Shown here in pieces: positions 7,857 to 38,356 of a DNA stretch of 50,390 nucleotides (positions within the stretch are counted from its first letter, which is position 1; every line of letters starts with the position of its first letter). Below the pieces are notes generated by a model. That model was given only the letters and a program-made list of their open reading frames with translations. It made no database searches and was not told the origin of the DNA. Location of the stretch: positions 1 through 50,390 of the IMG/VR virus record IMGVR_UViG_3300032318_000833; one strand, written 5' to 3'. The translations under genes and the position numbers were made by a program. Source of the stretch: a virus (taxonomy: Duplodnaviria; Caudoviricetes).

Positions 7857-8285
7857 TCAGAACGTAGAGCCAGTAATAGCGCCCGTGACCTGGAGTTCCA
7901 GCGAGTACGTCACGACATCACCAACGGGACTGGAAACCTCGTAGGAAGTGATGAGCGCCTCGCCCGTGAACTTCGGCTGCGCGGATGCGGAGCCAGCGGG
8001 ACCATACTCAAAACTAATGGATGACACCGAACCGGACTTGAGGTTGGCGATGTTGCCTGCGATCTGCGTATCAACGGTGGAATCGAACATGCCGGAGAGC
8101 GAAATCGTGGCGTCACCAAGGCCCGTGATGTACGTCTTGTCGTTCTGTCCGAAAGCGGTGGTCTCCGCAGTCTCGATCTCACGAGGCATACTAATCTCGT
8201 TGAGCGTGTCGCTAATGTTCACCAAGGAACCGGTGGTTCCATCAAGGCGAAATTGGGCGTTCTTACCATGCTTGAAAGTGGGCAT
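7857..8285 (-). CDS. major tail (tube) protein
   Basis: 142 aa; ETAETTAFG..DKTYITGLGDATISLSG and YEVSSPVGDVVTYSLELQVTG fit a tube-protein pattern; upstream of chaperone. Confidence 0.8.
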   Translation of the reverse strand: MPTFKHGKNAQFRLDGTTGSLVNISDTLNEISMPREIETAETTAFGQNDKTYITGLGDATISLSGMFDSTVDTQIAGNIANLKSGSVSSISFEYGPAGSASAQPKFTGEALITSYEVSSPVGDVVTYSLELQVTGAITGSTF

Positions 8286-8287
8286 TA

Positions 8288-9007
8288 CTATCTCCTTGCT
8301 GCCGAAACGTGATAGGTGATGGAGCCGGAGGTTCCGGCGAGGGTATGCGTTGCACGGAGATATTGATTTACCGTGCCTGTGCTGGTAATGCTCTCTCCCG
8401 TCGTGGTTGACGCGGAGACAACTGTGAATGTAACTAGATCAGCCCATGTTGCGTTATCCGCTGAGTGCTGAACCTTAATGGTGGAGTTCCCATCTCTAGT
8501 GTTAGCGGTCAAGTGGAGGTTGAACAAGCCACCGCCGCTACTACTACCCGCATCATTGATCCCGGTGAGGGATGCTGACGTTCCAGTATTTGTCAGGGCA
8601 TTGAGAGCGCGACCTGAGAAAAGACCACCATCGGCTTGAACCTCCGCGCTAATGGCAACAACGTCGCCCACGGGGGATGAAACCTCATATGAGGTCAATT
8701 GCCCGTTAGCAATGATCGAGCGTGCGCCAGCGGTAGCGCCCTCAGGAAGCACTGTGAAAGTGTTATCTTCCTGTCCGATGGTTCCAGTAAGCACATCGTT
8801 AGATGCGTTAGCGGTTCCATCGAACAAGCCGCTAGTGGAGATCGTCCCATCGGCAAGACCAGTAATGTATGTCTTGTCGGTATCCGAAAACGTGGTTGTC
8901 TCAGCGGTTTCGATCTCTTGGCTTTGAGTAGCCTCATTGAGGAACGGACTCATATTCGTACCGTTAAGCAATACGACGGTGCGCTTGCCATGACGGAATG
9001 TAGGCAT
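8288..9007 (-). CDS. tail tube paralogue with C-terminal beta-rich extension
   Basis: First ~130 aa align by eye with 7857-8285 (MPTF[RK]HGK, EIETAETT, DKTYITGL, YEVSSPVGDVV); about 110 extra residues follow. Confidence 0.75.
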   Translation of the reverse strand: MPTFRHGKRTVVLLNGTNMSPFLNEATQSQEIETAETTTFSDTDKTYITGLADGTISTSGLFDGTANASNDVLTGTIGQEDNTFTVLPEGATAGARSIIANGQLTSYEVSSPVGDVVAISAEVQADGGLFSGRALNALTNTGTSASLTGINDAGSSSGGGLFNLHLTANTRDGNSTIKVQHSADNATWADLVTFTVVSASTTTGESITSTGTVNQYLRATHTLAGTSGSITYHVSAARR

Positions 9008-9454: not shown

Positions 9455-9483
9455 TTGACCCTACAGCCTGAGCCTGCTAGACT
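9455..9483 (+). promoter_or_regulatory. sigma70/SigA-type early promoter
   Basis: TTGACC (9455-9460), 17-nt spacer, TAGACT (9478-9483), at the start of the plus-strand block. Confidence 0.8.
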
Positions 9484-9489
9484 CTACCC

Positions 9490-10100
9490 ATAAGTGAATA
9501 GGGGTGGGGTTGAGGTTAGGTAAGGCCGAAACCGCGAAGCCATAGGTGCTAATGCAACTCAATGAAGATGCGAAGGACGTTGGGGCCGGGAGTGGTTCGC
9601 AGTGGTCAAGACACTAGCAGGTCGGCAAGTACCGGGACTCCTCATAAGACTCCTCCCCGTTGATGTTTGAGAATTGAATAGAGATGGATGACCTGCCAAG
9701 GAGTAGGCCACGCGACGCATGATGCAAGAAGATGCGCGGCAATTGGTGTAAAGCGGTGATGCTTGGGATTGCCAATTGTTACGGGAGCGGAAACAAGAGG
9801 AGTACGCAGGGCGTGGTGAAACTGCCTAGATTGAAGCAACGCACGGTGCAAAGCACCTAAGCCATTAGTAACGTAGCGAATTGTTAGTGGCAGCCGTCTA
9901 GTAGTAGCCAAGTAGCGCTTAAAGCGCGGGAGTCTGGTGGGGCTAGATGGTGGAAGCGCAATGTGGATGTCGATGGGCTGTAGTCCCCAAAGTAAAAAGT
10001 ACCGGGGAGGCAAGGTTCCATATCAGCGATGTGCTGGGTATCGAGCATGAATGAGAGAGACGTTCCTTTAGTCATGCTTGGTGCGGAGGGCATCGCCTCC
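9490..10100 (+). ncRNA. large structured ncRNA (ROOL/GOLLD-like ornate phage RNA; family unconfirmed)
   Basis: About 600 nt with no credible ORF. Stems with G-U pairs: 9501-9510/9649-9658, 9617-9623/9690-9696, 9738-9746/9772-9780, 9845-9857, 9861-9891, 9893-9902/9942-9951, 9955-9967/10017-10035, 10038-10050/10072-10084, 10085-10100. Confidence 0.75.
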
Positions 10101-10120
10101 AATAACGAAAGGGCAACGTA

Positions 10121-10674: not shown

Positions 10675-11099
10675 AGGATGTAACAGAACGCACAGCGAAG
10701 TTCGAGTTCCGCGGCATTGAGTGCATTGCAAAAGTCACCTACACCGATTACCGCAAGAGCGATTGGGACCCACGGCAAATGAAATTCTTGCAGTTCCGTA
10801 AGGAGCAAGAGAAGAAGTCGCGTCTTTACTACGGTGAGGATGGAGTAATGGATAAGGCATATGGTGATCACCCGCCTTACTCCGTTAAGGGAGACGACCT
10901 TGCTAACGACAAAGCGTGGCGTAAATACAACAAGATGGAGTCCGATCTTGCGCGAGCAGCGATTGATGCTGTGTTCCCCGAGTTTGGGAAGTCGTTGTTC
11001 TCGCGTAAGGCTGGTTGCTCTTGCCCTTGCTCGCCCGGATTCATTAGCAAGTCGCTTGTTGGTGGACAGGGTTGGATTCGGGTGACGCTTGTTGAGTAG
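10671..11099 (+). CDS. hypothetical early protein (FSRKAGCSCPCSPGF motif)
   Basis: RBS GAAGGGGCAAC; Cys motif; stop codon abuts hammerhead 1. Confidence 0.7.
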   Translation: MKDVTERTAKFEFRGIECIAKVTYTDYRKSDWDPRQMKFLQFRKEQEKKSRLYYGEDGVMDKAYGDHPPYSVKGDDLANDKAWRKYNKMESDLARAAIDAVFPEFGKSLFSRKAGCSCPCSPGFISKSLVGGQGWIRVTLVE

Positions 11100-11160
11100 T
11101 CGAAACCGCCGTGAGGCGGTCGCGTGGAATTAGCCACCCACGCCTGATGAGACAGGCTTA
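11099..11160 (+). ncRNA. hammerhead ribozyme type II, copy 1
   Basis: GTC-GAAA-CCGCC(GTGA)GGCGG-TC^-GCGTGG(loop)CCACGC-CTGATGA-GAC. Loop AGCC pairs with 3' tail GGCT; predicted cut after 11121. Confidence 0.92.
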
Positions 11161-11176
11161 ACGAAAGGGCAACGTT

Positions 11177-11569
11177 ATGCAGTCAAAAGTGTATGACCTT
11201 GGCACCATCCGGCTTGACGATGTGGCGCTGATCATTTCAGATGAAGTGCGTTACTACGAGCGAGCAATGTCCTACACGCATTACATCATCGACGACGAGT
11301 GCGTGCGATTGATCAATTACAATCGCCGTCGCATGACACGGCATCGTCTTATCGCTGCCCGTAAAGTTCAAGAAGCGTTGAATGATCCCGAGTCGCAGTA
11401 CTACGACATGACGACGTTTGACGCAACGCGGCGTTTGGCAGAAGCAGCCGAGTGGTACGGGCGTTGCATCGAATTGGTAACGCACTTTGTCCATTTGGAT
11501 AGGGAAGCGACAATTGCAAACATCAAGTTGGAGAACGCTCGCCGTGAGGCAAGGGGTTACGAAGACTAG
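11177..11569 (+). CDS. hypothetical early protein flanked by two hammerheads
   Basis: Start motif GAAAGGGCAAC; 130-aa ORF. Confidence 0.7.
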   Translation: MQSKVYDLGTIRLDDVALIISDEVRYYERAMSYTHYIIDDECVRLINYNRRRMTRHRLIAARKVQEALNDPESQYYDMTTFDATRRLAEAAEWYGRCIELVTHFVHLDREATIANIKLENARREARGYED

Positions 11570-11575
11570 CCGTTA

Positions 11576-11634
11576 GTCGAAACGCCGTGAGGCGTCGCGT
11601 AGACCTGACCACCTACGCCTGATGAGACAGGTCA
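11576..11634 (+). ncRNA. hammerhead ribozyme type II, copy 2
   Basis: GTC-GAAA-CGCC(GTGA)GGCG-TC^-GCGTAG(loop)CTACGC-CTGATGA-GAC. Loop TGACC pairs with tail GGTCA; cut after 11596. Confidence 0.92.
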
Positions 11635-11653
11635 TAACAGAAAGGGCAACGTC

Positions 11654-11977
11654 ATGGCTAGAACTAAGAAGGTAACGCAGCGTCAGGCTGATCGCGTGCT
11701 TCGTGCTGTCGCTGATTGGATGTACCAGCAGAACGGTTACACGCAGCCAATCCCTACTGGTGAGGATGCCGCATACAAGGGGCTTGGTCCGATGCTCAAC
11801 ATGACTTGGGATTGGCCTTCGTCTAGCCCAACGCCCACCGTCTTGCTTGAGGGTGGGCCGGAGGAGTGGGCGGTTCGTTGCTGCCAGTACGTTCAAGAGT
11901 TGATGGACGCTCGCAAGATTCCCGTGTTCGTTGAGCCGTACGCATCGTATGCGCTTTGCATCTACAGGGAGGACTAA
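11654..11977 (+). CDS. hypothetical early protein
   Basis: Start motif GAAAGGGCAAC; 107-aa ORF. Confidence 0.7.
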   Translation: MARTKKVTQRQADRVLRAVADWMYQQNGYTQPIPTGEDAAYKGLGPMLNMTWDWPSSSPTPTVLLEGGPEEWAVRCCQYVQELMDARKIPVFVEPYASYALCIYRED

Positions 11978-11980
11978 GCA

Positions 11981-12196
11981 ATGGCAAAAGCATGGGACGT
12001 TGTCGCATACACCGCGGACGGAGATATCTATTGCCCACGTTGCGCCGTTGTGCGTTACAGCACTTGGATTGAGAAGACCGACGTTCCAGACCATGAGGGC
12101 AACAACATCATGGCGGTTTTTGCTTCCGATCCACATAAAGGTGAAACATGCGGGGGTTGTCTTGCCCCGATCTACATTAGCGAAAGGGTTAGGTGA
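11981..12196 (+). CDS. small Zn-binding hypothetical protein
   Basis: CPRC and CGGC pairs; RBS GGAGG. Confidence 0.65.
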   Translation: MAKAWDVVAYTADGDIYCPRCAVVRYSTWIEKTDVPDHEGNNIMAVFASDPHKGETCGGCLAPIYISERVR

Positions 12197-12459
12197 TCGT
12201 GATGGACCGTGTAATGACACCGCGCGTTGCAGGATTGATCGACGCAGCGAAAGACCTTGTTGTGCAGGCTATGTATGAGGGGTCGCACATTCAACGACAA
12301 GAACCTGCGCCAGTTGAGGGTACTCCTTGGGATCGTCCCGACTTGCCTAATGGTGCGTTGGTGATGTTGGTGAACATCCAACACGACCTAGAGGTTTTGC
12401 TTGCCACTCATTTTGCAGGCCAAACCCCGGAGCGTCCCGGTACTTGGGTCGCAACGTGA
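12193..12459 (+). CDS. hypothetical protein
   Basis: Overlapping start/stop with neighbours. Confidence 0.55.
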   Translation: MIVMDRVMTPRVAGLIDAAKDLVVQAMYEGSHIQRQEPAPVEGTPWDRPDLPNGALVMLVNIQHDLEVLLATHFAGQTPERPGTWVAT

Positions 12460-12614
12460 ACATCAACATTCGTTGGGTGCAATCGAAGCCTGAGGATTGG
12501 GTTGATTACCCAAGCGATTGCGCGAACTGCAATCGTCCAATGAACTGCCTTTACAAGCAAGAGAGTGGGGCTTACTTCTGCTCCACTTGCCATTACAAGA
12601 AGGAGGGGAAATGA
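12456..12614 (+). CDS. small Zn-finger-like protein (52 aa)
   Basis: Hand-translated MNINIRWVQSKPEDWVDYPSDCANCNRPMNCLYKQESGAYFCSTCHYKKEGK; GTGA and ATGA overlaps at the two ends. Confidence 0.6.
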   Translation: MNINIRWVQSKPEDWVDYPSDCANCNRPMNCLYKQESGAYFCSTCHYKKEGK

Positions 12615-12817
12615 ACATCAAGGAGATTGGCGTGGGTTTCTTTACACGCCCAACTATTGATTCATTGCGTGAGTTGCTTGATCGGCTTGAGCGTGAGGGT
12701 TGGAGCGCCGACCAACAAATCCAAGTGATCCAGTTGGGGAACAAGCCGGAAGCGTTTGTCATCCAGGCTGTTGAGGAGTGGCTTGGTTCAAGTGAGCCAC
12801 CCATTCGTCGCTACTAG
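12611..12817 (+). CDS. hypothetical protein
   Basis: RBS AAGGAGG, ATG 12611; stop abuts hammerhead 3. Confidence 0.6.
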   Translation: MNIKEIGVGFFTRPTIDSLRELLDRLEREGWSADQQIQVIQLGNKPEAFVIQAVEEWLGSSEPPIRRY

Positions 12818-12880
12818 TTCGAAACCTCGCTTCGGCGGGGTTGCATGGAATTGACCAACCATGCCTGACGAGATAGGTCA
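12817..12880 (+). ncRNA. hammerhead ribozyme type II, copy 3
   Basis: GAAA-CCTCGC(TTCG)GCGGGG-TT^-GCATGG(loop)CCATGC-CTGACGA-GAT. Loop TGACC pairs with tail GGTCA; GUU cleavage triplet, cut after 12842; stem II is weak. Confidence 0.82.
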
Positions 12881-12895
12881 TAGCGAAAGGGCAAT

Positions 12896-13186
12896 GTGAT
12901 GCTAGAAGAAAACAAGAAAGAACTGTACGCGTTAGTTCTTGCTCACATGGAACGTTACGGGCAAGACTTGACAGAGCATCGTATTTGGGATGCGCACGAT
13001 GGTCGCCCAGATGGAACGCTAGTCACCAACGACAACCTTCACCTTTTCCGTCAATTCCGTAACACCATCAGCAGTTCGCCTCGCGTCATGGTGCATGCCG
13101 CATTGGAATCAAGAAATCAATTCGATGCCGTGTTCCCCGATCCCAACATTACGCCATATGACATCCCGAAGAAGGTGGAGCGATGA
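12896..13186 (+). CDS. hypothetical protein
   Basis: Start motif GAAAGGGCAA. Confidence 0.6.
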   Translation: MMLEENKKELYALVLAHMERYGQDLTEHRIWDAHDGRPDGTLVTNDNLHLFRQFRNTISSSPRVMVHAALESRNQFDAVFPDPNITPYDIPKKVER

Positions 13187-13434
13187 ACGACGAGATTGTT
13201 AAGTACGACTTGACATTAGGTCGGCCTGTCAATGGCATTGAGATGATTGAGGTGCGACGTATCGCGCGACCATACATTGTTGACAAGGCAGGGCGTCGGC
13301 AATGGATGAAAGAACATTCGCAAGAGGACCGCGAGGTTCTAATGACAATCCCGTTCACCGACGTTCCTGCTTTGCTACAAGCAGTAGCGGAATGGGCGGC
13401 ATGGCATATGTCGCCTACTCCATTGAAGGATTGA
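13183..13434 (+). CDS. hypothetical protein
   Basis: ATGA overlap; RBS GGTGGAG. Confidence 0.6.
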   Translation: MNDEIVKYDLTLGRPVNGIEMIEVRRIARPYIVDKAGRRQWMKEHSQEDREVLMTIPFTDVPALLQAVAEWAAWHMSPTPLKD

Positions 13435-13436
13435 TG

Positions 13437-13649
13437 ATGATGATTGAGTTTCATTACGAAAATGATTATGGCGTCTCCGTTGTGTTCAAGTGGAATCGCA
13501 GCCAGACCATCAACCTCTACGTCAATGGTGTGGAGAGCGAGTCGTTCACGTTGCTCCATGCCGATGTGATGAAGGTGATGGAGTGGTGCGATGACATGGC
13601 AGACGATGTGATGACGCGGTTGGTCGATGAGTTGGGCGACCAAGCCTAG
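13437..13649 (+). CDS. hypothetical protein
   Basis: RBS GAAGGA; start among tandem ATGs at 13434-13440. Confidence 0.55.
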   Translation: MMIEFHYENDYGVSVVFKWNRSQTINLYVNGVESESFTLLHADVMKVMEWCDDMADDVMTRLVDELGDQA

Positions 13650-13702
13650 GAGGGGTCGTCCCCCATGGCGGTATGAGGTCATGGGGGATTCCCCCCTTGG
13701 GG

Positions 13703-13807
13703 CGATCTGGGCGATTCTGGGGGGTCAACATGGGGGGATGGGTACCATTATGGCCCCTATGGGGGTCTGCTCCCCCAACAACCCCCAGATTGCCCCTGAG
13801 GGGGAGG
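13703..13807. repeat. dispersed ~105-bp G-run element, copy A (intergenic)
   Basis: Shares CGATCTGGGCGATTCTGGGGG...ATGGGGG...GGGTACC...CTATGGGGG...CCCCCA...CAGAT[T/A]GCCCCTG with 19774-19877. Confidence 0.75.
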
Positions 13808-13950
13808 CCCATAGCCCGAATCATTTGGGGATGGGGTCCCGGCCCTATGGCCTTTGGTCGCTCAATTGCCGTGGCTATTGGCGTGGAATTGCTATTGGAC
13901 AACACACCAAATGCCATTGAGCGTACAGTCGTTGGCTGCTACTTTCTTGC

Positions 13951-14020
13951 TATCGAAACCTTGCCCATGCAATTGGGCGGGTCCATCGGGGATCGCCTCC
14001 CGATGCTGAGGAGATAGGCG
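13951..14020 (+). ncRNA. hammerhead ribozyme type II, copy 4
   Basis: TATC-GAAA-CCTTGCCCA(TGCAAT)TGGGCGGG-TC^-CATCGGG(loop)CCCGATG-CTGAGGA-GATA. Loop CGCC pairs with tail GGCG; cut after 13983. Confidence 0.88.
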
Positions 14021-14038
14021 GCAGAAGAAAGGGGCAAC

Positions 14039-14365
14039 ATGCCTTGGTTGAACAAGCGATTCGTAGATGACATCGCCGGAGAGGTCGATGCTCTACGATC
14101 CAGCGTTGATCCAGTAACAAAGCAGTTTGTTGAGGGGTATGACCGTGCAGTCGGCAACCCCGACTACTTCCGCTTTAGGGGTAGGGGTGAGCAGATTGAT
14201 CTCCCTATCGGTGAGGACGCCTACCCCTTGATGGAAAGTATCGCGCTTAACCGCGTGTCCTATTGGGATGACGCACTTGCTAGCGCACCCGACCCGATGC
14301 GCAAGGACATTTGCCGTCGGGGCATTAGGCGATCCAAGAAGGTAGCCGCACGATTCAAGAAGTGA
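14039..14365 (+). CDS. hypothetical protein
   Basis: Start motif GAAAGGGGCAAC. Confidence 0.65.
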   Translation: MPWLNKRFVDDIAGEVDALRSSVDPVTKQFVEGYDRAVGNPDYFRFRGRGEQIDLPIGEDAYPLMESIALNRVSYWDDALASAPDPMRKDICRRGIRRSKKVAARFKK

Positions 14366-14370
14366 CGTTG

Positions 14371-14408
14371 GGTGTAGGCCTTACCTCAATTGGGGTAGGG
14401 CTTACACC
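14371..14408 (+). other. 17-bp intergenic hairpin
   Basis: GGTGTAGGCCTTACCTC-AATT-GGGGTAGGGCTTACACC with three G-U pairs and no U-tail; lies just before the GAAAGGGCAA start motif. Confidence 0.65.
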
Positions 14409-14429
14409 GTCAATCGAAAGGGCAAGCAA

Positions 14430-14645
14430 ATGTCAATGGATATGGGGCACTACTACGACAACGAGACAGACCGCTGCATCGACTGTGATTGCAGGCCGTG
14501 GGGTCGTTGGGCAAAACTCCCGTGCGGGATTGACCCTAAGACGGTTGATATCTCGCAAGGCAACGTGCAGGCGCATAGCGATGAGTTCTTCAAGGGGTTC
14601 ATTGAGTACGCAATGATCAAGGCTGCGCTTGAGGGTGACAAGTGA
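14430..14645 (+). CDS. small Cys-containing hypothetical protein
   Basis: Start motif GAAAGGGCAA; CIDCDC...PCG. Confidence 0.6.
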   Translation: MSMDMGHYYDNETDRCIDCDCRPWGRWAKLPCGIDPKTVDISQGNVQAHSDEFFKGFIEYAMIKAALEGDK

Positions 14646-14688
14646 GGGCACGTTACGGTGACGCAATCGTTGATATCAAGGAGGAATC

Positions 14689-14793
14689 GTGAGACTCACA
14701 AAACGCGGAGAGATCGTTCTAGCCACCGTCGCAACAATCGTCCTACTCGCAATGATGGGAATTGCCGGATGGGTGGAAGGAGGAATGCAGTGA
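14689..14793 (+). CDS. small membrane peptide (34 aa)
   Basis: RBS AAGGAGG; MRLTKRGEIVLATVATIVLLAMMGIAGWVEGGMQ. Confidence 0.6.
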   Translation: MRLTKRGEIVLATVATIVLLAMMGIAGWVEGGMQ

Positions 14794-14849
14794 TTGATCC
14801 AGAAGACGATGACGACGATTACGGTGACGGCGTTGTTTACGTTTGACTA

Positions 14850-14905
14850 GGTCGAAACCCCGTGAGGGGTCCGGTACTGAATGGTGCCGCTGACGAGACC
14901 GTCAG
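14850..14905 (+). ncRNA. hammerhead ribozyme type II, copy 5
   Basis: GGTC-GAAA-CCCC(GTGA)GGGG-TC^-CGGTAC(TGAATG)GTGCCG-CTGACGA-GACC. CTGA can pair with tail TCAG; cut after 14871. Confidence 0.9.
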
Positions 14906-14923: not shown

Positions 14924-15925
14924 ATGCCAGCAGCAGTAGAAACATTCAAGGACGGGAGCGCAGCGTTCTTTTCCAACCGCGTTGCTCCGTGGCACGCACT
15001 CGGCACCATTACTGACGGGGCGCAGACCGCAGAGGATGCGTTGCGTCTAGCGCAGTTGGATTGGGAGGTCATTAAGAGCGACGATCCCGTACAGGTCCCC
15101 GTTCTTACGCCAAGCGGCGTGCAAAGCGTTACGGTGCCAGATAAGTTCATGACATATCGCAATCACCCGAAGTTGGGATTGCAGGGTCTTGGTGTTGTGG
15201 GTTCTCAATACACCGTGATCCAGAACAAGGAAGCGTTCGACTTCCTTAACGGGTTGGTTGATGAGGGTGGGGCTGTGTTTGAGACAGCCGGGTCAATCTT
15301 TGACGGGCGACAGGTCTTTATGTCCATGAAGTTGCCGAACACGATTGAGTTGGCTGGTGGTCAAGACACGCTAGACCTTTACCTCATTGCGACTACATCC
15401 CACGATGGGACCAAGGCGTTCACCGTCTACTTGTCCTACGTTCGCCCGGTGTGCGCTAACACCGTGCAATGGGGGTTGTCGTCGGCGGTAGACCGTTGGT
15501 ATCTCAAGCACACGACGGGCGTTACGGGCAAGGTTCATGTTGCTAGGGAAACGCTTGGTCTTGTGTTTAAGCACCAAGCCGATTTTGAGCGGGAAGTGCA
15601 GCGGCTTGTGTCCACGCCGATGACGAACAATGAGTTCGCCAAGTTCGTTGAGGTCATTGTGCCTTCGCCCAAGAGCCCGACGTTGCGGCAGGGAACGCGT
15701 ATTGACACCGTGCGGGGAGAGTTGATGGGGCTTTGGAACGCTCCCACACAAGAGCCTGTCAAGAACACACGTTACGCAGCGTTCAATGCGGTAACGGAGT
15801 GGGTTGATTGGGTCAAGCCTGTCAAGGCTAAGAAGAAGGAAGCAGACGTTGTGCGTGCGCAACGCGTTTTCATTCCTCGTAGTGATGCGCTTAAGAAGCG
15901 CGCCCTCATGCTGCTCGCTAAGTAG
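14924..15925 (+). CDS. DUF932/DUF945-family phage/plasmid protein (TIGR03299-like)
   Basis: PWHALG, ALRLAQLDWEV, LGVVGSQYTVIQNKEAF, FETAGS, SHDG, RPVCANT, KHT, AFNAVTEWVD motifs. Confidence 0.85.
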   Translation: MPAAVETFKDGSAAFFSNRVAPWHALGTITDGAQTAEDALRLAQLDWEVIKSDDPVQVPVLTPSGVQSVTVPDKFMTYRNHPKLGLQGLGVVGSQYTVIQNKEAFDFLNGLVDEGGAVFETAGSIFDGRQVFMSMKLPNTIELAGGQDTLDLYLIATTSHDGTKAFTVYLSYVRPVCANTVQWGLSSAVDRWYLKHTTGVTGKVHVARETLGLVFKHQADFEREVQRLVSTPMTNNEFAKFVEVIVPSPKSPTLRQGTRIDTVRGELMGLWNAPTQEPVKNTRYAAFNAVTEWVDWVKPVKAKKKEADVVRAQRVFIPRSDALKKRALMLLAK

Positions 15926-16006
15926 CGGGTGATCGAAGTGGGGCAGGGATAGTTGCCCGTCCCTGCCCTGCCTCGGCTAACCGCTAGCCGGGAAGGGGTA
16001 ATTGCA

Positions 16007-16817: not shown

Positions 16818-17008
16818 TGGTCGAGTATCTAACAGTCGGGGATGTGGCAGAGCGGCTTGGGGTTTCGCGTAGCACCATCACCGCGTACAAGGCAAGGAAG
16901 CAAATGCCTAAGCCTGATAAGCAGTACGGCAGGACCCCGCTATGGCGGGAATCAACAATCGAAAATTGGCGTAACACCAAGAAGGGGCAGTCAAATGAAA
17001 CTCACTAA
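16817..17008 (+). CDS. AlpA/excisionase-like HTH DNA-binding protein
   Basis: YLTVGDVAERLGVSRSTITAY...MPKPD..GRTPLWRESTIENW. Confidence 0.85.
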   Translation: MVEYLTVGDVAERLGVSRSTITAYKARKQMPKPDKQYGRTPLWRESTIENWRNTKKGQSNETH

Positions 17009-17711
17009 CGAGCAGTACGAGAAGTTGCTTCAACCGCTTGCCGCTAACCGCGTGGCTAGCCGTAAGCAAGCCGGAATGAACTTGTCTTACCTAGAGGCTT
17101 GGGATGTAAAGGCTCATCTCATTCGCATCTTTGGGTTCGGAGGTTGGTCGGCTGACGTTATCTCCGCTGACCTAGCGTTTGAGGATAAGGATGAGAAGGG
17201 TCGCTGGAACGTGGGCTACAAGGTCGTGATGCGTTTGCGCATCCACACTTATGACGACTTTCTTGGAGAACCAACGTTCACAGAGGCAGCGGTTGGGTCG
17301 TCTACGCAATCGTCAAGGGGTGACGCGCACGACATGGCAATAAAGACTGCGGAGTCGGATGCTCTTAAGAGGGCGGCGATTAACCTTGGTACACAGTTCG
17401 GCCTCAGTCTTTACGACAATGGCAACAAGCGGGATGTTGTCGGGTACACGATGGTGGAGCCGGAGGGCTACGAGCAGCCGACAACGACTAGCGTTGAGCC
17501 TGAGTCGCAGCCTTCCACCCCTGTGCCTAATGATCTTGTGGCTAAGGTGGCAGAAGCCACGGACAAGGTCGCGCTTAAGGCCATTTGGGATTTGTGCGTT
17601 GCTAACGGGTGGCTTGACCAATCGCTCGACGGTGCCGAGATCAGCATGCGTAACGTGATCATTGATCGACTTGCTGAGATCGAGCCCCTTGTAGAGGCAG
17701 TTGACGAGTGA
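16995..17711 (+). CDS. Rad52/Sak-like single-strand annealing protein
   Basis: LSYLEAWDVKAHLIRIFGFGGWS and HDMAIKTAESDALKRAAINLGTQFGLSLY are Rad52-family motifs; ATG 16995. Confidence 0.88.
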   Translation: MKLTNEQYEKLLQPLAANRVASRKQAGMNLSYLEAWDVKAHLIRIFGFGGWSADVISADLAFEDKDEKGRWNVGYKVVMRLRIHTYDDFLGEPTFTEAAVGSSTQSSRGDAHDMAIKTAESDALKRAAINLGTQFGLSLYDNGNKRDVVGYTMVEPEGYEQPTTTSVEPESQPSTPVPNDLVAKVAEATDKVALKAIWDLCVANGWLDQSLDGAEISMRNVIIDRLAEIEPLVEAVDE

Positions 17712-19270: not shown

Positions 19271-20257
19271 ATGACCGAGGATAGCAGAGTGGTCGCCGAA
19301 AGGGGACCTTTTGAGATGGTTCCGCATTGGTTGTTGCACGACCTAGAAGTAAATGCGCTAGCCATTCGGCTGTACCTAGTGTTACGTCAACATGCTAATG
19401 CTCAAGGTACTTGTTTCCCCAGTCGGCAACGCCTATGCGATTTGCTTGGCGTTTCGTTACCGACATTGGATAAAGCCCGTGAGCAATTGGTTCACGCCGG
19501 AGCATTGACGATACGCAAGAGAAAGGATGCTGCAAACCAATGGGCGTCGTCGTTGTATGTCGTACATTGGGAGAAGCAAGATTTTTATGCACGGGCTACC
19601 AAGTTTTTTGATGAGGGTCATCAAGAATCTTCTATACGAACTAATACCCACTTAACTAAGACAAGTACTACTACTCCACTACAGCAAACTAATTTGCCTA
19701 CCGCTCCGGATGGGGCCAATGGTGTCGATTCCCACCCCGGCATGGGGGGCAAGGGGGACCTATGCCCCAGGCCCGATCTGGGCGATTCTGGGGGACCAGA
19801 TATGGGGGAGGGTACCCATGGGGGGACTATGGGGGACCGACCCCCCAGCGGCCTTCAGATAGCCCCTGGGAGGGGGGTCGATATCCCCGATTCCCCGATC
19901 AACCCGACCCAAAAGGGGAGGCAAGGATGGACCGTAAATGGCACTCACCCCGCATCATTTGATGACTTTTGGCGTGCGTATCCACGGCGAGCAGGCAAGA
20001 AGGCTGCGCTACAAGCGTGGCTTGCTGCGATCCGTGAAGCCGATGCAGATTGCATCGTGGAAGCCGCAAGACGTTACTCAAATGATCCGAATAGAGAACC
20101 ACGATTCACACCGCATCCCGCTACTTGGCTACGTCAAGGACGTTGGGATGATGAACCATTACCCTCGCGTTCGACTGGCGCAGCAGGCCAGCGACGAATG
20201 GACGCGTATCAAGATATCTATAACAAGATCAATCAACGAAAGGGCATCGAACAATGA
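19271..20257 (+). CDS. replication initiator (N-terminal HTH, phage O/Rep-like)
   Basis: LYLVLRQHA...CFPSRQRLCDLLGVS HTH; C-terminal FDDFWRAYPRRAGKKAA...HPATWLRQGRWDDE; low-complexity linker. Confidence 0.8.
   Translation: MTEDSRVVAERGPFEMVPHWLLHDLEVNALAIRLYLVLRQHANAQGTCFPSRQRLCDLLGVSLPTLDKAREQLVHAGALTIRKRKDAANQWASSLYVVHWEKQDFYARATKFFDEGHQESSIRTNTHLTKTSTTTPLQQTNLPTAPDGANGVDSHPGMGGKGDLCPRPDLGDSGGPDMGEGTHGGTMGDRPPSGLQIAPGRGVDIPDSPINPTQKGRQGWTVNGTHPASFDDFWRAYPRRAGKKAALQAWLAAIREADADCIVEAARRYSNDPNREPRFTPHPATWLRQGRWDDEPLPSRSTGAAGQRRMDAYQDIYNKINQRKGIEQ
19774..19877. repeat. dispersed G-run element, copy B (inside initiator gene; candidate origin)
   Basis: Homologous to 13703-13807; ATGGGGG occurs four times in 19742-19835. 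Confidence 0.7.
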
Positions 20258-23074: not shown

Positions 23075-24316
23075 ATGGGAAAGATGATTCGCAAGAAAAA
23101 AGAAGTAGACCGTAACGTTTACGAAATGGCTAAAGAGCGAGTAGCGCACGCGTTCGACATTTTCGATGAGATCGTAGTGTCATTCTCAGGCGGTAAAGAC
23201 TCAACTACCGTTTTGGAACTTGTGCTTGAAGAAGCAGAGAAGCGTGATCGTCTACCGCAACGCGTGGTCTTTTTCGATGAGGAAGCGATCCCTTGGCAAA
23301 CGGTCGAATACGTTGAGCGACGTAGGCAAGATCCGCGTATCAAACTAGAGTGGTACTGCGTATCCTTGCCATGTCGTAACGCTTGTGCGCGGGATGAGTC
23401 ATATTGGTACCCATGGAATCCTGACGAGAAGGACAAATGGGTTCGACCATTGCCGGAGCATGCAATCACTTCGCATCCGTTGATTGACGATTTGCCGTTA
23501 GAGAAGCGTCCCGGTTGGGCAACATTTGCAGACTTCCTTGGTAACGGAAAAGGATCAACGGCATTTGCGCTTGGTATCCGCGCTGATGAGTCGCTTGGTC
23601 GATACATGCAAGTGGCTAAGCGAGAGAAAGATAATTGGATCATCAACCTTCGGCCCGGCGTAGCCAAGGTTCTTCCGATCTATGACTTCCGCACCGAAGA
23701 TGTGTGGACTGCGCCTGCCATGTTTGGTTGGGATTACAATCGCGCCTACGACATTCTTGAAATGCTCGGCATTAGCCCGTCGCAACAGCGTTGCGCCCCG
23801 CCATACGGCGAGGAGCCGATGCAGAAACTTTGGGTGTTTCGTGAGGGATTCCCTGAGATTTGGGACAAGATGGTTTACCGCGTTCCCGGCGCAGCAACAG
23901 CGGCGCGTTACTCCAATACAGAGTTGTATGCGTTCAATGATCGCCTTGAGAAGCCTGTCGATATCTCGTGGAAGGACTACATCTACGAGTTGGCTGGCGG
24001 GTTGGAGGAAAAGTCTCGCGGTAAGGCTATCTACACAATTCGCACCATGATTAATGGTCACTACAAGGCTGTATCTACTCCGATCATGGAAGATAGCGCG
24101 CACCCTCGCGGCGGCGTGACTTGGCAAATCATTGGGAAGATCGCCATGCGAGGAGACGACAAGGGAAGGAAAGCGCAAATGGCGCGGCACTTCTCCGACC
24201 CAAGCAAGCCAGACTTTGAGCCAATGCTCAAGAAGTACAACAATGAACTAGACAATGTGACCAGGGCTGGACGGCTTTGGGAGTTTGAGTTGGAGAATAA
24301 TAATGGGGAAGCCTGA
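23075..24316 (+). CDS. PAPS-reductase-family protein (IbrA/YbdN, DUF3440-like)
   Basis: PP-loop VSFSGGKDS, FFDEE, GIRADES, PIYDF..EDVW, YNRAYD, QRCAPPYG. Confidence 0.88.
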   Translation: MGKMIRKKKEVDRNVYEMAKERVAHAFDIFDEIVVSFSGGKDSTTVLELVLEEAEKRDRLPQRVVFFDEEAIPWQTVEYVERRRQDPRIKLEWYCVSLPCRNACARDESYWYPWNPDEKDKWVRPLPEHAITSHPLIDDLPLEKRPGWATFADFLGNGKGSTAFALGIRADESLGRYMQVAKREKDNWIINLRPGVAKVLPIYDFRTEDVWTAPAMFGWDYNRAYDILEMLGISPSQQRCAPPYGEEPMQKLWVFREGFPEIWDKMVYRVPGAATAARYSNTELYAFNDRLEKPVDISWKDYIYELAGGLEEKSRGKAIYTIRTMINGHYKAVSTPIMEDSAHPRGGVTWQIIGKIAMRGDDKGRKAQMARHFSDPSKPDFEPMLKKYNNELDNVTRAGRLWEFELENNNGEA

Positions 24317-24812
24317 CGATCATCCTTTGTCTAAAGTTGAATGGGTTGATCCAAAAAAGTTGAGGGCAAATAACTACAATCCGAACAAGGTCGCACCGCC
24401 CGAAATGAAATTGCTCAAGTTGAGCATTATGGAAAACGGTTGGACGCAGCCAATTGTGGCGCACCCGGACGGCGAGATCGTTGACGGGTTCCATCGTTGG
24501 ACACTAGCGTCGCAGGATAAGCAAGTTGCTGCGCTCGCTGGTGGGCTTTGCCCCGTAGTGCGATTGAAGATTAACGAGAGCGATTCGCGTCTTGCGACAA
24601 TTCGCCACAATCGCGCACGCGGCTCGCATTACGTCGTTCAAATGTCCAATATTGTTATTGATCTTTTGGAGGCTGGACTGTCGGAAGATGAAATCAGCAA
24701 GCGACTTGGCATGGAACCTGAGGAGGTTCTGCGCCTAAAGATGCGAGGAGATTCCATTGCGCGCAAAGCCAAGAAAGACTTCAACAACGGCTGGGTACCT
24801 GGGGATAAGTAA
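24303..24812 (+). CDS. ParB-like protein (IbrB/YbdM-like)
   Basis: ANNYNPNKVAPPEMKLLKLSI..GWTQPIV, IVDGFHR, TIRHNRARG. Confidence 0.88.
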   Translation: MGKPDDHPLSKVEWVDPKKLRANNYNPNKVAPPEMKLLKLSIMENGWTQPIVAHPDGEIVDGFHRWTLASQDKQVAALAGGLCPVVRLKINESDSRLATIRHNRARGSHYVVQMSNIVIDLLEAGLSEDEISKRLGMEPEEVLRLKMRGDSIARKAKKDFNNGWVPGDK

Positions 24813-25284
24813 GGCTCTTGTTCTTGTGACAGCCTTTGTCCTGGCTTCCCTAACGGGGGTTCATTCCCCTGCTTCCGCTGGGGAGTGTCGAACCGTGAAG
24901 ATTCTTCACAATGCTGGTTTCACGGGAAACAAATTGCAAATTGCATACGGGATCGTGATGCGAGAGAGCAAGGGACAAAACCTGTCCGAAAGTAGTCCAT
25001 GGTTCAGCGGAGCGTTAGGTTACTGGCAAGTGCAAACGTCAGCGCACTCGCATAACAAGTGGTGGTCTCGCGCCGCGATGCTCAATCCGTTACGGCAAAG
25101 CCAAATTGTCTACAAGTACATGAGCAAGAAGGGGACGTATTGGCGACCGTGGGGATTGAGCGGCGACGGTAAATCAATGGACACAACCCAATACGGTGCA
25201 TGGTCAGGTTGGCAGCATTACAATTGGATTTGGTTGCCTTACATTCGTTACTACAATTCTTTCCCGAAGTGCAAACTAACTTAA
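24757..25284 (+). CDS. secreted lytic-transglycosylase-like protein (start uncertain)
   Basis: Hydrophobic signal-like segment, then IAYGIVMRESKG...GYWQV...NP...WRPW (lysozyme-fold motifs). Confidence 0.65.
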   Translation: MRAKPRKTSTTAGYLGISKALVLVTAFVLASLTGVHSPASAGECRTVKILHNAGFTGNKLQIAYGIVMRESKGQNLSESSPWFSGALGYWQVQTSAHSHNKWWSRAAMLNPLRQSQIVYKYMSKKGTYWRPWGLSGDGKSMDTTQYGAWSGWQHYNWIWLPYIRYYNSFPKCKLT

Positions 25285-25296
25285 TAAGGAGTAGCA

Positions 25297-25737
25297 ATGC
25301 CTGACGTTAGCAACAACGAAAACTCACTCATCATCACGAACATCTTTGAGTTGCAACATAAGATTCTTGATGAGGGCGTTCAGGTTTGGGGTGCCCCAGC
25401 AATTGGCGTCCCGCTTCACACTAACGGTAACCTTGGCGTTGATTTACTCCGAGTCGAAGCCGGGGACTCATTCCCGATTCACACGCATCCTGGCGATCAT
25501 CTTTTGCTTTGCGTCGCAGGGACAGGATCAATCTCAATTGGGCGACGTACCTACGAGGTAAAGCCCGGCGATCTTTACATGGTGCCCGGACTGATCCCGC
25601 ATGCTGTTGGCGCAGGCGATAATGAGTTCCATGTGCTTGCGGCTTTCGGTTCTCCGCATAAGCCCGTCGCGTCGCCCGAGCGTATGACGCTCGTTGATTG
25701 GGACGGTAGCGTCGTTTCCTCTGCGAAGTTTGCTTAG
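25297..25737 (+). CDS. cupin-domain protein
   Basis: HTHPGDH...GTG...PGDLYMVPGLIPHAV cupin motifs. Confidence 0.85.
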   Translation: MPDVSNNENSLIITNIFELQHKILDEGVQVWGAPAIGVPLHTNGNLGVDLLRVEAGDSFPIHTHPGDHLLLCVAGTGSISIGRRTYEVKPGDLYMVPGLIPHAVGAGDNEFHVLAAFGSPHKPVASPERMTLVDWDGSVVSSAKFA

Positions 25738-25738
25738 C

Positions 25739-27052
25739 ATGGGTACGCTCTACAATCCGCGTACGGGTAAGCCTCGCGGGGAAAGCTATGAAACTTCATC
25801 CGTTGAGTTGGGTGACGCAATTAGTAGAGCAAGAAATGCGGCTAAGACTTGGGCTGAAAAAACCCCAGCGGAAAGGGCGTTGGCTCTAACGCATTTCACG
25901 CAAGCCTTGTACGTTAAGCGCGGGGTTCTTGCCGACCTTGAGTGTCTTGGCACTGGGAAGCCGAGGTCGCAGGCGCTTGCGGAAGTAGAAGGTGCTATTG
26001 ACGTTATTCGATTCTATGCGGGTGCTGCTCGCGTTGCCACTGCGCCTTCCGCTGGCAAATACATAGACGGTTACTTCTCATCTGTTGTGTTGGAGCCACT
26101 TGGCACAATCGGTGTTATCTTGCCGTGGAACTATCCAATGATGATGCTTGCTTGGCGTCTTGGCCCGATCCTTGCGGTTGGTAATACTGCCGTTGTGAAG
26201 CCTGCTTATGAGACTCCCGAAACCGCTGTTGAGGTTGCGCGCGTGGCTCGTTGCTATCTCGGAGAGGGAATCGTTGAGGTTGTTCCCGGCAGCGATTCCG
26301 TTGGTAAAAGACTTGCAGTGACTCGCGCATTAGACGGGTTGGCTTTCACAGGTTCTGTTTCCGCAGGGTATTCGGTTGCTGCGGCAGCTGGTATCAAGCC
26401 AGTATCACTTGAGTTGGGTGGTAACGGCGCGGCTGTCGTTTTGCCCGACGCCCCACTAGATACAGCGCGCATCCTTGTAGATGCATCTACATACAACGCT
26501 GGACAATCGTGCGCCTCTCCCGCAAGAGTTATTGTTGTTGGGAAGCAAGCTGACTTTGTAAATGCGTTGGCTAGAGAAGCGCAATCTCGTAACGCTACAG
26601 ATTTTGGTCCGTTGATTTCAAGTGAAGCACTCAATCGTGTTCGCTCAATGGTTGCTAATACAGAGTATTCGATTGGGGCTAGGGGCGCTGCGCCTACTGA
26701 TGGGTACTACTTCCCGGCGACGGTGTTGATTGATGCTGTTGGGGAAGCGGTGGAGAAGGAAGTGTTCGGACCAGTTCTAACGGTTGAGCGAGTCGATACC
26801 GTTGATGATGCTATTGAGAAAGCCAACTCCATGCCGCAAGCATTGGGTTGTTCAATTCACACTTCAAGCCATACGTCAGCATTGACTTTGGCTCCGAAGA
26901 TTAACGGTGGCGAGGTTTGGGTGAATTGCCACCTAGTTCAATCGCCCGAATTGCCGCACTCTGGAAGGGGATCTAGTGGGCAAGGGATTGACCTTTCAAT
27001 GGATGCGCTACGCGACTTCACGCGTCCAAAGACCATCACATCACGGCTCTAG
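25739..27052 (+). CDS. NAD(P)-dependent aldehyde dehydrogenase
   Basis: NPRTG, PWNYP, KPA.ETP, FTGS, LELGG (catalytic Glu), NAGQSC (catalytic Cys), EVFGPV. Confidence 0.92.
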   Translation: MGTLYNPRTGKPRGESYETSSVELGDAISRARNAAKTWAEKTPAERALALTHFTQALYVKRGVLADLECLGTGKPRSQALAEVEGAIDVIRFYAGAARVATAPSAGKYIDGYFSSVVLEPLGTIGVILPWNYPMMMLAWRLGPILAVGNTAVVKPAYETPETAVEVARVARCYLGEGIVEVVPGSDSVGKRLAVTRALDGLAFTGSVSAGYSVAAAAGIKPVSLELGGNGAAVVLPDAPLDTARILVDASTYNAGQSCASPARVIVVGKQADFVNALAREAQSRNATDFGPLISSEALNRVRSMVANTEYSIGARGAAPTDGYYFPATVLIDAVGEAVEKEVFGPVLTVERVDTVDDAIEKANSMPQALGCSIHTSSHTSALTLAPKINGGEVWVNCHLVQSPELPHSGRGSSGQGIDLSMDALRDFTRPKTITSRL

Positions 27053-28015: not shown

Positions 28016-29552
28016 CGAGATACTAAGGGCAACCCCGGAGCAACGCCGTAAGTTATTTGCTGCAGCGACCCCGGAGCAAAAGTTCGCGCTCCGTAAAATC
28101 TTGTCCGATAGGGCAAGCAATCCTTGGCTTCGTTTTGAGGACGATCCAGTATCTTTCGTTACTAAAGGTATTGGTGAGGACGTTTGGTCTAAGCAGATAG
28201 AGATTCTTGAAAGCGTCCGTGACAATAAGCGAACTGCGGTTCCGGCTTGTCACGCTCCGGGTAAATCGCATATTGCTGCTCGTATTGTGGCGTGGTGGAT
28301 TACGTCGCATCCGATTGGTACAGCCCGTGTCGTTACTACCGCGTCGTCATACCGTCAGGTCAAGAACATCCTTTGGGCGCACATCCGTAGATTGCATGCC
28401 GCTCATGGCATGGTTGGGGAAGTGTTTACGGCGAATTGGCAAGTAGACGGGATTGTTGTTGCGGACGGGTTCTCCCCCGCTGATCATAATGAAACCGCGT
28501 TGCAGGGTATCCACGCTGAGCATTTATTGGTCGTGGTTGATGAGGCTGGCGGTATTAGCCAAACAATCGGAACCGCGCTTGAAGCACTAATGACTGGTGG
28601 GCATACACGCTTGCTTGTTTTGGGTAACCCTCCGACCGATAATCAAGGCTCTTGGTTTGAGCGTACATGCAATAGCGACCTCTACAACGTTATTCCAATC
28701 CCCGCTTTCGATACGCCCAACTTCACGGGCGAACATGTAGGTAAGTGGGGACACAACCTTGTAGATCATGAATGGGTTGATGAAGTTATTCGCGAGTTCG
28801 GGGAGGAATCGCCGTTTGTACAAGCCCGTGTGTTTGCTCGATTCCCGCGCAACACAACTAACGTTACGCTTCCGATTACTTGGCTAGAGAACGTTGTTAC
28901 CGACGAGTACCAATTGGAAGGGGCTATTCGCCTAGGGGTTGATGTTGCTGCGGAAGGCGGCGACGAGTTTGTTGTAGCGCGTTTCGACGGCGACCTAGGG
29001 CGAGTAATGCACGCTTCCGCGTACTCGCGTACTGCGGTGGAAGTATCTGGAATTGTGCTAGAGCATATACATGAAGCAGAGAAAGACCAACAATCGCGTG
29101 GGATAGCGGAGCCAGTCCGCGTGAAAGTGGACAGTATCGGCTTGGGGTGGGGTGTTGTAGGCCTTTTGGAGGAATGGGGTAAAGAGGGACGCCACCATTC
29201 CACAATCGTTCCTGTGAACGTCGCAGAGAGAGCGCACGATAACAACAAGTTCGTGTCCCAAAAAGCCGAGATGTGGTGGACGATGCGGCAAATGATCCAA
29301 CCTGATGAAACTGGCAGGGTTGGCATAATGCTAGACGTTGATCGCAAGACTGTAGCGCAATTGACTGGACCCACCTACAAGACTAATAGTTCGGGCAAAA
29401 TTCAAATCGAATCTAAAGTCGATATGAAACGCCGAGGATTGAATAGCCCTGATCGCGCTGAGGCGTTATTGTTAGCGTTGTTTGAGCCGCCAGAAAAGAC
29501 TATCCCTAATGTTGCTCCGTTGAGCATCACACAAACAAGCGGGTGGATATGA
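28008..29552 (+). CDS. terminase large subunit
   Basis: Walker A variant CHAPGKS, Walker B VVVDEA, LGNP, nuclease LGVDVA and SPDRAEA. Confidence 0.92.
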   Translation: MLDEILRATPEQRRKLFAAATPEQKFALRKILSDRASNPWLRFEDDPVSFVTKGIGEDVWSKQIEILESVRDNKRTAVPACHAPGKSHIAARIVAWWITSHPIGTARVVTTASSYRQVKNILWAHIRRLHAAHGMVGEVFTANWQVDGIVVADGFSPADHNETALQGIHAEHLLVVVDEAGGISQTIGTALEALMTGGHTRLLVLGNPPTDNQGSWFERTCNSDLYNVIPIPAFDTPNFTGEHVGKWGHNLVDHEWVDEVIREFGEESPFVQARVFARFPRNTTNVTLPITWLENVVTDEYQLEGAIRLGVDVAAEGGDEFVVARFDGDLGRVMHASAYSRTAVEVSGIVLEHIHEAEKDQQSRGIAEPVRVKVDSIGLGWGVVGLLEEWGKEGRHHSTIVPVNVAERAHDNNKFVSQKAEMWWTMRQMIQPDETGRVGIMLDVDRKTVAQLTGPTYKTNSSGKIQIESKVDMKRRGLNSPDRAEALLLALFEPPEKTIPNVAPLSITQTSGWI

Positions 29553-30565
29553 CAACGACTTTGCTCACGGGTGCATCTGGTTTCGTCGGATCACATGTGT
29601 TACGCCATATCTTGGCGAACACAGACCATAAGGTCGTATGCCTTGTCTCATTCCGGCATCGTGGGATAACCGATCGAATCCGTTTGGCAATCGCAGGCTT
29701 AGACCCAACGTTCGCCCGAACTAAGGTACTCGTCCACGATTTGATCGCCCCAGTTTCGCCCGTACTTGCCGAAGAAATCGGCACCGTTGATTACATACTT
29801 AATGTGGCTAGCGAATCCCACGTTGATCGCTCAATCATCGAACCCGCTTCGTTCATCGTGAATAACGTGGCTTTGATGGTGAACATGTTGGATTACGCAA
29901 AGGACTACTTGCCGGAATTGCAATCATTCGTGCATGTTTCTACCGATGAGGTGTACGGTCCTGCTCCCCTTGGGCACGCTCATCGTGAATGGGTGGATGC
30001 TTACTATCCAAGCAATCCTTACTCCGCATCTAAAGCAGCGCAAGAGTCAATTGCTTACTCGTATTGGCGCACGTATGGAACCCTGCTCACAATCACTAAC
30101 ACAATGAACATTATTGGGGAAATGCAAGACCCTGAGAAGTTCGTACCAATGGTGATAAAGCGAGTGCTTTCCGATCAGATTGTCCCAATCCATGCGTCAC
30201 CAAACGGGGAGATCGGGTCAAGGTTCTACCTACATGCAAGGAATCAAGCCGACGCATTGTTGTTCGCGCTAGACCAGCCTAATGTCAAGTATGGCGATTC
30301 GCTTGTGCCTAATAAGTGGCATGTTGTTGGAGAGCGCGAAGTGAATAATCTTGAAATGGCTGAGATGATCGCGTCGATTATCGGCAAACCGTTGCGTTAC
30401 GAGTTGATTGACTTTCATTCATCACGCCCAGGACACGATTTGCGTTACGCCCTAGATGGGGAAAAGATCGCTACCGCAGGATGGACAGCACCATTGTCGC
30501 TAGAGGAGTCGTTAGAGCGCACTATCAAATGGACGCTCGCTCACCCCGAATGGTTATCCCTTTAA
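29549..30565 (+). CDS. dTDP-glucose 4,6-dehydratase (RmlB-like)
   Basis: TGASGFVGS, ASESHVDRSI, VSTDEVYG, PSNPYSASKAA, RPGHDLRYALD. Confidence 0.9.
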   Translation: MTTTLLTGASGFVGSHVLRHILANTDHKVVCLVSFRHRGITDRIRLAIAGLDPTFARTKVLVHDLIAPVSPVLAEEIGTVDYILNVASESHVDRSIIEPASFIVNNVALMVNMLDYAKDYLPELQSFVHVSTDEVYGPAPLGHAHREWVDAYYPSNPYSASKAAQESIAYSYWRTYGTLLTITNTMNIIGEMQDPEKFVPMVIKRVLSDQIVPIHASPNGEIGSRFYLHARNQADALLFALDQPNVKYGDSLVPNKWHVVGEREVNNLEMAEMIASIIGKPLRYELIDFHSSRPGHDLRYALDGEKIATAGWTAPLSLEESLERTIKWTLAHPEWLSL

Positions 30566-31101: not shown

Positions 31102-31110
31102 GTTCCTATT

Positions 31111-38152: not shown

Positions 38153-38356
38153 CTAGTCCTCTAGGAAGATCGTCCCGCGAGTCGTAGTAGAAACAATCCT
38201 ATCCGCATCAAACACTACCGACGCGCTACTTTTAGGCGTCCCCAAACGCACCGCGATGTTGTCTTGATCCGAAACGGCAGTAACGCGAGCGTGGCGAATA
38301 CGCCCGTCGTCCATTTGCACAGGCAAATGCGTTCCAGAGCGAATAATCTTAGCCAT
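38153..38356 (-). CDS. small hypothetical protein
   Basis: TAATG coupling to protease gene. Confidence 0.55.
   Translation of the reverse strand: MAKIIRSGTHLPVQMDDGRIRHARVTAVSDQDNIAVRLGTPKSSASVVFDADRIVSTTTRGTIFLED

Follow-up and report, generated by a model that had tools for sequence, protein, structure and literature searches.

Why would a phage place self-cleaving RNAs between its genes, one after another and all on the coding strand? The question is raised by IMGVR_UViG_3300032318_000833, a virus record (Duplodnaviria; Caudoviricetes) from IMG/VR that we analysed over its whole length of 50,390 nucleotides (nt), here called the window, a 50 kb record with an estimated completeness of about 85%. 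An initial annotation of this DNA had proposed five complete type II hammerhead ribozymes with cleavage-site nucleotides (H17) at 11121, 11596, 12842, 13983 and 14871. We found the same five, named E1 to E5 in array order:

11099–11158, + strand: E1, type II hammerhead with GUC; predicted cut after 11121; stem II of 3 bp, including the G of the upstream TAG; pseudoknot AGCC/GGCT.
11576–11634, + strand: E2, type II hammerhead with GUC; predicted cut after 11596; pseudoknot TGACC/GGTCA.
12819–12880, + strand: E3, type II hammerhead with GUU; predicted cut after 12842; stem II of 2 bp; pseudoknot TGACC/GGTCA.
13950–14021, + strand: E4, type II hammerhead with GUC; predicted cut after 13983; stem II of 5 bp; pseudoknot CGCC/GGCG.
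14850–14905, + strand: E5, type II hammerhead of a short-loop-I subtype with GUC; predicted cut after 14871; stem II of 4 bp.

From sequence and layout, we lean towards the view that the array lets the transcript process itself into insulated, swappable expression units, each unit then starting about 55 nt ahead of its start codon with a 5' end of standard form, paired throughout. That the five elements cleave at all is a separate matter, and very probable.

Our structure-aware scanner, which covers type II only, demands GAAA, stem III, UH, stem I, CUGANGA and an open stem II. Run on both strands, it returned exactly five elements in the window, all on the + strand, and none in 40 dinucleotide shuffles; a plain sequence pattern recovered the identical five, with no match in 100 shuffles. 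The invariant core (GAAA, UH and CUGANGA in type II order) is present in 5/5 elements, together with a stem I of 6–8 bp and a paired stem III, both closed by loops, and an open stem II of 2–5 bp. E3, with its GUU triplet and 2-bp stem II, is the weakest and may be slow at cleaving. A check against the Rfam hammerhead model RF02276, which the initial annotation had suggested, picked up part of the array: at E<=1 it lists E1 at 37.0 bits (the gathering score is 37) and E4 at 30.6 bits, leaving E2, E3 and E5 unlisted. The elements share with RF02276 the core, the permutation, a stem II of down to two pairs and, in E1–E4, a pseudoknot of at least 4 pairs; E5 differs in having a loop I of 3–5 nt, a stem II of 4 bp and a tail whose sequence complements the core. 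The same Rfam search of the window at E<=1 gave nothing from other ribozyme classes past the two hammerheads and one weak Ms_AS-8 match, and no tRNA was found in the window.

The spacing of the elements is regular. The predicted cuts lie 55, 57, 56, 55 and 52 nt before the start codon for E1–E5, and the tails end 18–20 nt before it, in agreement with the 15–20 nt estimated earlier. Likewise, four elements do begin close to a stop codon, which ends 2, 9, 3 and 7 nt ahead of GAAA in E1, E2, E3 and E5; E4 is preceded by about 300 nt without a credible gene. Type II hammerheads were defined by Perreault et al. 2011 (PMC3088659) with a pseudoknot between loop I and the 3' tail in the majority of members, not in all. 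Among the window elements, own loops and tails pair over 4–5 bp, against a mean of 2.9 for crossed combinations. The pseudoknot had been annotated in all five copies, and this holds for E1–E4. For E5 we found another pairing:

14890–14905, + strand: alternative 6-bp hairpin of E5, formed between the 3' tail and the catalytic core; it and stem II exclude each other.

The predicted fold of E5 has the tail paired to the core in this way. A tail of the form C-X-TCA occurs in 18/211 unique elements, and in 18/18 of these X pairs with core position N7. Two further pattern scans left N7 and X both free; their totals are estimated at about 440 and 240 stretches, and the counts that follow are among the matches listed. 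The structural filter was passed by 111/220 unique matches, 104 of which have a Watson-Crick N7-X pair (58 T-A and 46 C-G; 108/111 when G.U is included), the shuffled expectation being a mean of 53.8 with a maximum of 72. Even the 109 elements failing the filter gave 83 Watson-Crick pairs versus 41 after shuffling. Both T-A and C-G recur across many of the 68 stem-I starts, which is the one check made on relatedness. Loop I measures 3–5 nt in 108/111 and stem II 4 bp in 107/111; CTGA stands in the stem-I hairpin in only 4/111 and TGA in 32/111, so that a loop-I pseudoknot cannot account for tails of this type. The CTGA/TCAG pseudoknot previously assigned to E5 is thus probably a misassignment, the tail being better explained by pairing to the core. 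Because the catalytic core stays invariant, the modelled hairpin is most likely a post-cleavage cap driving product release, with a pre-cleavage brake as the alternative. The subtype was not found in the literature searched, including the available part of PMC10085705, a search whose coverage leaves out most subscription journals.

The wider family was studied through 40 viral loci with a relative of the DUF932 protein encoded just after E5; the family set comprises 46 unique ribozymes. Parts of the window that bear on this comparison are the following:

11160–11174, + strand, also at 10104, 11637, 12882, 14027, 14416 and 14911: shared ribosome-binding motif with a GAAAGGG core, found after every ribozyme tail and at several other junctions.
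11177–11569, + strand: gene of 130 amino acids, the sole single-gene unit (E1–E2); its homologue in locus L135 likewise lies between two hammerheads, of different stem-I types.
14924–15925, + strand: DUF932 protein (Pfam PF06067), with an E5-subtype hammerhead directly ahead in L133–L136, L196 and L184.
16995–17711, + strand: Rad52/22-family single-strand annealing protein (Pfam PF04098, E 1.4e-24).

In the four closest relatives (63–65% DUF932 identity), eight hammerheads each were found between the tail genes and DUF932, nearly one per gene, and five relatives at 49–51% identity carry one to three each. A search of metagenomes for DUF932 gave 69 loci, none above 50% identity, 4 of them with a hammerhead-scanner match. 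The order stop codon, ribozyme, ribosome-binding motif and start codon is conserved at the junctions, and 48 ribozymes from 7 contigs make up 36 distinct gene-ribozyme-gene junctions with 11 stem-I types. Pairing of at least 4 bp between own loop I and tail is seen in 46/46 family ribozymes versus 25% of crossed pairs. Elements of this kind are common in IMG/VR, with about 3,800 stretches estimated to match the pattern and a structurally valid element in 104 of the 132 loci retrieved. In further viral contigs (L180, L198 and L042), a single array contains five type II hammerheads or matches to the pattern. A non-coding leader of about 250 nt is conserved before the first hammerhead (L133 4540–4770, with matching leaders in L134, L187 and L211); judged by eye, that of L187 has compensatory changes in its outer stem, and it would be freed as a small RNA.

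The stop of a long open reading frame (ORF) lies within 9 nt of the ribozyme in 39 of the 46 family members, and 27/46 have a TAG two nt before GAAA, its G therefore falling in stem II. For the stop-codon statistics we used the 181 of 220 unique elements with at least 400 nt upstream. The stem-II TAG ends an ORF of at least 50 codons in 26/27 family cases versus 164/826 other nearby TAGs, and in unrelated phages the same comparison gave 18/25 versus 116/1087. An in-frame TAG in stem II was found in 26/46 family and 18/135 unrelated ribozymes.

Three junctions of the window that lack a ribozyme bear long hairpins instead, with core helices of 13–17 bp (z scores were computed on windows chosen by eye):

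10026–10097, + strand: long hairpin before the first small gene, z -4.5, at the position of the first hammerhead in four relatives; candidate RNase III-type site.
14363–14415, + strand: 17-bp hairpin that follows a stop codon and precedes the shared ribosome-binding motif, z -6.7; the homologue of the next gene has a hammerhead ahead in L184.
15923–15990, + strand: long hairpin after DUF932, z -3.1; a long hairpin is there in 7/7 folded relatives, and in L184 a hammerhead takes this position.

Contigs of 3 other runs carry pairing-preserving changes in two of them, 10043 G>A turning a G.U into an A-U pair in the first and 14402 T>C turning a G.U into a G-C pair in the second. Hammerheads replace hairpins in relatives, in L133–L136 at the leader junction and in L184 at two places, behind DUF932 and ahead of the homologue of gene 14430. 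Such swaps at equivalent junctions suggest that the two structures are interchangeable processing signals, by analogy with T7 early RNA; it is also possible that the hairpins are terminators without a U-run.

Gene content between the ribozymes differs among relatives by insertions, deletions and replacements, and L187 has two genes in reversed order. Contigs of other runs (85% likeness) diverge from the window at 11097, 11163, 11560 and 13979, that is, at ribozyme edges, although more distant relatives can yield such ends. The stem-I type was kept with the upstream gene in 26/35 informative pairs and with the downstream gene in 19/36 (in neither case are the pairs independent); since stem I tracks genes on both sides, crossovers would have occurred at two places, the ribosome-binding repeat and the 5' half of the ribozyme. 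This fits DNA recombination at shared blocks and speaks against a transfer of RNA units from cut to cut as the general route. Proteins of the Rad52 type recombine diverged sequences (PMC3945230), and a gene of the Rad52 family is located 1 kb past DUF932; the phage protein plausibly drives gene exchange between the repeats.

Under self-processing into insulated units, each element would fold once transcribed and cut itself at H17. The upstream product would then end in the stem-III hairpin at its 3' side, while the downstream one would start with a 5'-OH and be paired from its first nucleotide on. The pseudoknot (E1–E4) or the tail-to-core hairpin (E5) would keep the 5' end tightly folded without blocking the ribosome-binding site; the hairpin of E5 would further displace stem II and impede re-ligation. 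The long hairpins at the three other junctions probably serve the identical role via a host nuclease. A folded 55-nt leader of one kind on every unit likely decouples the expression of the next gene from upstream sequence, so that expression would be independent of the upstream neighbour because each unit would get the same fully paired 5' end. Since every unit would have standard ends, DNA recombination between shared blocks (ribozyme and ribosome-binding motif), plausibly carried out by the Rad52-like protein, could exchange genes freely without re-tuning of expression.

Cleavage of a polycistronic RNA into units is plausible from the anatomy of the elements, and it is a published hypothesis. 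In prophages (Clostridium scindens, Azorhizobium, Agrobacterium ardA), hammerheads cluster around individual genes or short gene blocks, processing into operon- or gene-length mRNAs was proposed, and cleavage by tandem prophage hammerheads was shown both in three 2-kb constructs and in E. coli (PMC3088659). The mechanism is therefore not new, and neither is the arrangement, known since 2011. The window resembles those clusters in having several coding-strand ribozymes around single genes or short blocks of variable identity. It differs in number, with five here and eight in relatives as opposed to the tandem and triple arrangements tested there, in the fixed geometry of stop codon, ribozyme, ribosome-binding site and start codon, and in the long-hairpin junctions mixed in. 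What is added is the regular eight-ribozyme relatives, gene turnover traced in close relatives, the hairpin substitutions and the covarying anti-core tail; since the phage is uncultured and the array concept dates from 2011, the surprise is limited. The biological role of such ribozymes was called largely elusive in a 2019 review (PMC6765202), and their purpose near phage genes is described as largely unresolved (PMC10085705).

A close functional analogy is RiboJ, a synthetic hammerhead-plus-hairpin insulator that gives transcripts uniform 5' ends; in E. coli it increased mRNA about twofold and protein two- to tenfold (PMC6206723). RiboJ is engineered and placed after a promoter, whereas the phage elements are natural and operon-internal, with insulation here a prediction; the likeness is of function, not of membership. 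In phage T7, the early transcript is cut by RNase III into mono- and dicistronic mRNAs (PMC4858673). Here too, a phage early transcript is predicted to be divided into short mRNAs. In T7, however, a host protein does the cutting, whereas none would be needed at the five sites described here; RNase III could act only at the three long hairpins. Processing of T7 RNA by the host RNase III leaves 5'-phosphates.

Several observations weigh against self-processing into insulated units. Three of the four inter-ribozyme units in the window hold three or four genes, and only E1–E2 is a single-gene unit; with the 300-nt gap before E4, the annotated idea that expression is set gene by gene goes too far for this genome. 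Among the DUF932 relatives, 31/40, the distant ones, have no such ribozyme nearby. The lowest-energy ViennaRNA fold, which takes in neither pseudoknots nor Mg2+, departs in all five elements from the hammerhead fold as we specified it, and the core-sequestering fold of E5 has a predicted energy 4.3 kcal/mol lower than that of the active secondary fold, tertiary contacts not being counted. By hand count, 8/12 alignment ends between L134 and L135 fall in a ribozyme zone, and 8/13 gene junctions have a ribozyme; no excess is thus seen, and a role of ribozymes as recombination hot spots is not supported, breakpoints following gene junctions in general. Finally, RNase J of Mycobacterium smegmatis cuts 5'-OH and 5'-P oligonucleotides similarly, although that of M. 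tuberculosis prefers 5'-P and RNase E is activated by a 5'-monophosphate (10.64898/2026.04.06.716707). The protection from 5'-monophosphate-dependent decay proposed in the initial annotation is thus only partly backed; because a 5'-OH fails to shield from every RNase J, protection would need to come largely from the 5' hairpin.

The same enzymology raises the alternative that cleavage is a decay timer, the new ends serving as entry points for RNase J and 3' exonucleases, which would limit early and possibly toxic genes to a brief period of expression. The likely host group has RNase J, and cleavage by the glmS ribozyme is followed by degradation (PMC6765202), a second point against a protective role. 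We consider the timer unlikely: the predicted cuts leave the 5' end paired from its first nucleotide and the 3' end behind a GC-rich stem III, and RiboJ, a comparable design, raised expression.

A somewhat slimmer chance is given to conditional cleavage, in which a ribosome terminating at the stem-II stop, or the anti-core tail of E5, would hold the ribozyme off, cutting thereby reporting translation or timing. The in-frame stem-II TAGs, the kept N7-tail pair and the lower predicted energy of the tail fold are what one would expect of it. But AG is common at the stem-II position even without a stop (CAG, AAG, GAG), so compaction of the genome may be all that the overlap reflects; the tail hairpin might form only after cleavage, and no ligand or trigger was identified.

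It is very improbable that the elements are kept chiefly as DNA recombination repeats, with self-cleavage incidental. The model for such repeats is the PeSL cassettes of T4-type phages, promoter-terminator units with demonstrated recombination and mini-circles that mediate gene shuffling (PMC2839356). The likeness lies in repeated regulatory elements bordering non-essential genes subject to insertion, deletion and replacement. In the family studied here, two genes of L187 are also reordered between ribozymes, and in the window a Rad52-family gene adjoins the array. The repeat here, however, is a ribozyme plus a ribosome-binding motif, recombination is inferred, and a promoter scan gave no match at any of the five elements where a PeSL has a promoter and a terminator stem-loop per repeat. 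Moreover, the stems diverge with pairing kept (11 stem-I types in 48 copies, and covarying pseudoknots), which lowers DNA homology and points to selection on RNA structure, and breakpoints do not exceed those at other gene junctions.

Equally improbable are units ligated into circles or mobile as RNA intermediates: the 5'-OH and cyclic-phosphate ends expected from cleavage can be joined by ligases, and stem I often stays with the downstream gene, but keeping the whole ribozyme with the upstream gene, as in the 26/35 pairs above, is impossible by cut-to-cut transfer, no RtcB, kinase or reverse transcriptase match was found among 80 scanned ORFs of this roughly 85% complete record, and Perreault et al. 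found no circles (PMC3088659).

Returning to self-processing into insulated units, the eight ribozyme junctions, natural gene swaps and ribozyme-versus-hairpin substitutions of the relatives amount to matched constructs for separating stabilisation, decay and insulation. More speculatively, the three interchangeable punctuation parts (pseudoknotted hammerhead, self-capping hammerhead and nuclease hairpin) might form a natural plug-and-play expression system, in which the E5 subtype, matched in hundreds of viral contigs, would be a two-state hammerhead whose tail shuts the core to gate cleavage or lock the product; this idea is tentative. If functional, the core-pairing tail would give a hammerhead its own conformational control and offer a ready design for 5'-end insulators.

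The array sits between a leftward block of tail genes and rightward recombination and replication genes. Two further features bear on its transcription:

9455–9483, + strand: candidate early promoter (-35/-10, 17-nt spacer, extended TG), directed away from the tail genes; a consensus match only, at chance-level frequency in the region.
13650–13949, + strand: GC-rich non-coding stretch before E4, with a 55-nt repeat (73%) shared with 19765–19819 inside the replication initiator gene and a weak promoter-like match at 13917–13945.

We infer the status of early operon from this layout, that is, from the tail block, the rightward genes and the promoter-like site at 9455–9483. The 19 sequencing runs listed for this sequence include no RNA run, a result without bearing on expression. 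Downstream of that site, 630 nt of leader (9490–10120) have no credible gene or Rfam match, and the whole region folds at only z -1.1. No Pfam family was found for 13 scanned genes between 10121 and 14645, three of which have PHROG families of unknown function. The 300-nt stretch before E4 may interrupt the operon. A promoter right before E4 stays a weak lead, because its pattern occurs 11 times in the window versus 12.9 expected; its start site would land on the first paired nucleotides of E4. The stretch 13650–13950 folds strongly (z -4.2), its repeat partner at 19765–19838 is a repeated tract within the initiator gene, and the two are possibly initiator-binding sites or a second origin.

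As to the host, the window has a WhiB match and the 30 best cultured DUF932 matches (36–40% identity) are all from actinophages, which makes an actinobacterial host likely. Matches to the family-style pattern in GTDB genomes (42 loci from scattered phyla, with no actinobacterium among the titles listed) give no information on the host, and blastn gave no E2-like element in a cultured phage.

Elsewhere in the window, the gene at 38356–40026 (- strand) encodes an XkdF capsid maturation protease fused to a TUDOR-like domain. A PHROG label of RNA ligase for this gene was rejected, because the match (residues 420–543) falls on the Pfam XkdF protease domain (413–535), the part from which the label stems. 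A PAPS-reductase-like gene, two ParB-like genes, a cupin and a full-length aldehyde dehydrogenase precede the terminase at 23075–27052 (+ strand), possibly as a DNA-modification cluster. Two clusters of nucleotide-sugar epimerase and glycosyltransferase genes (29543–32756 and 45448–48396) are possibly related to virion glycosylation, and two major-tail-protein paralogues lie side by side at 7857–9007 (- strand).

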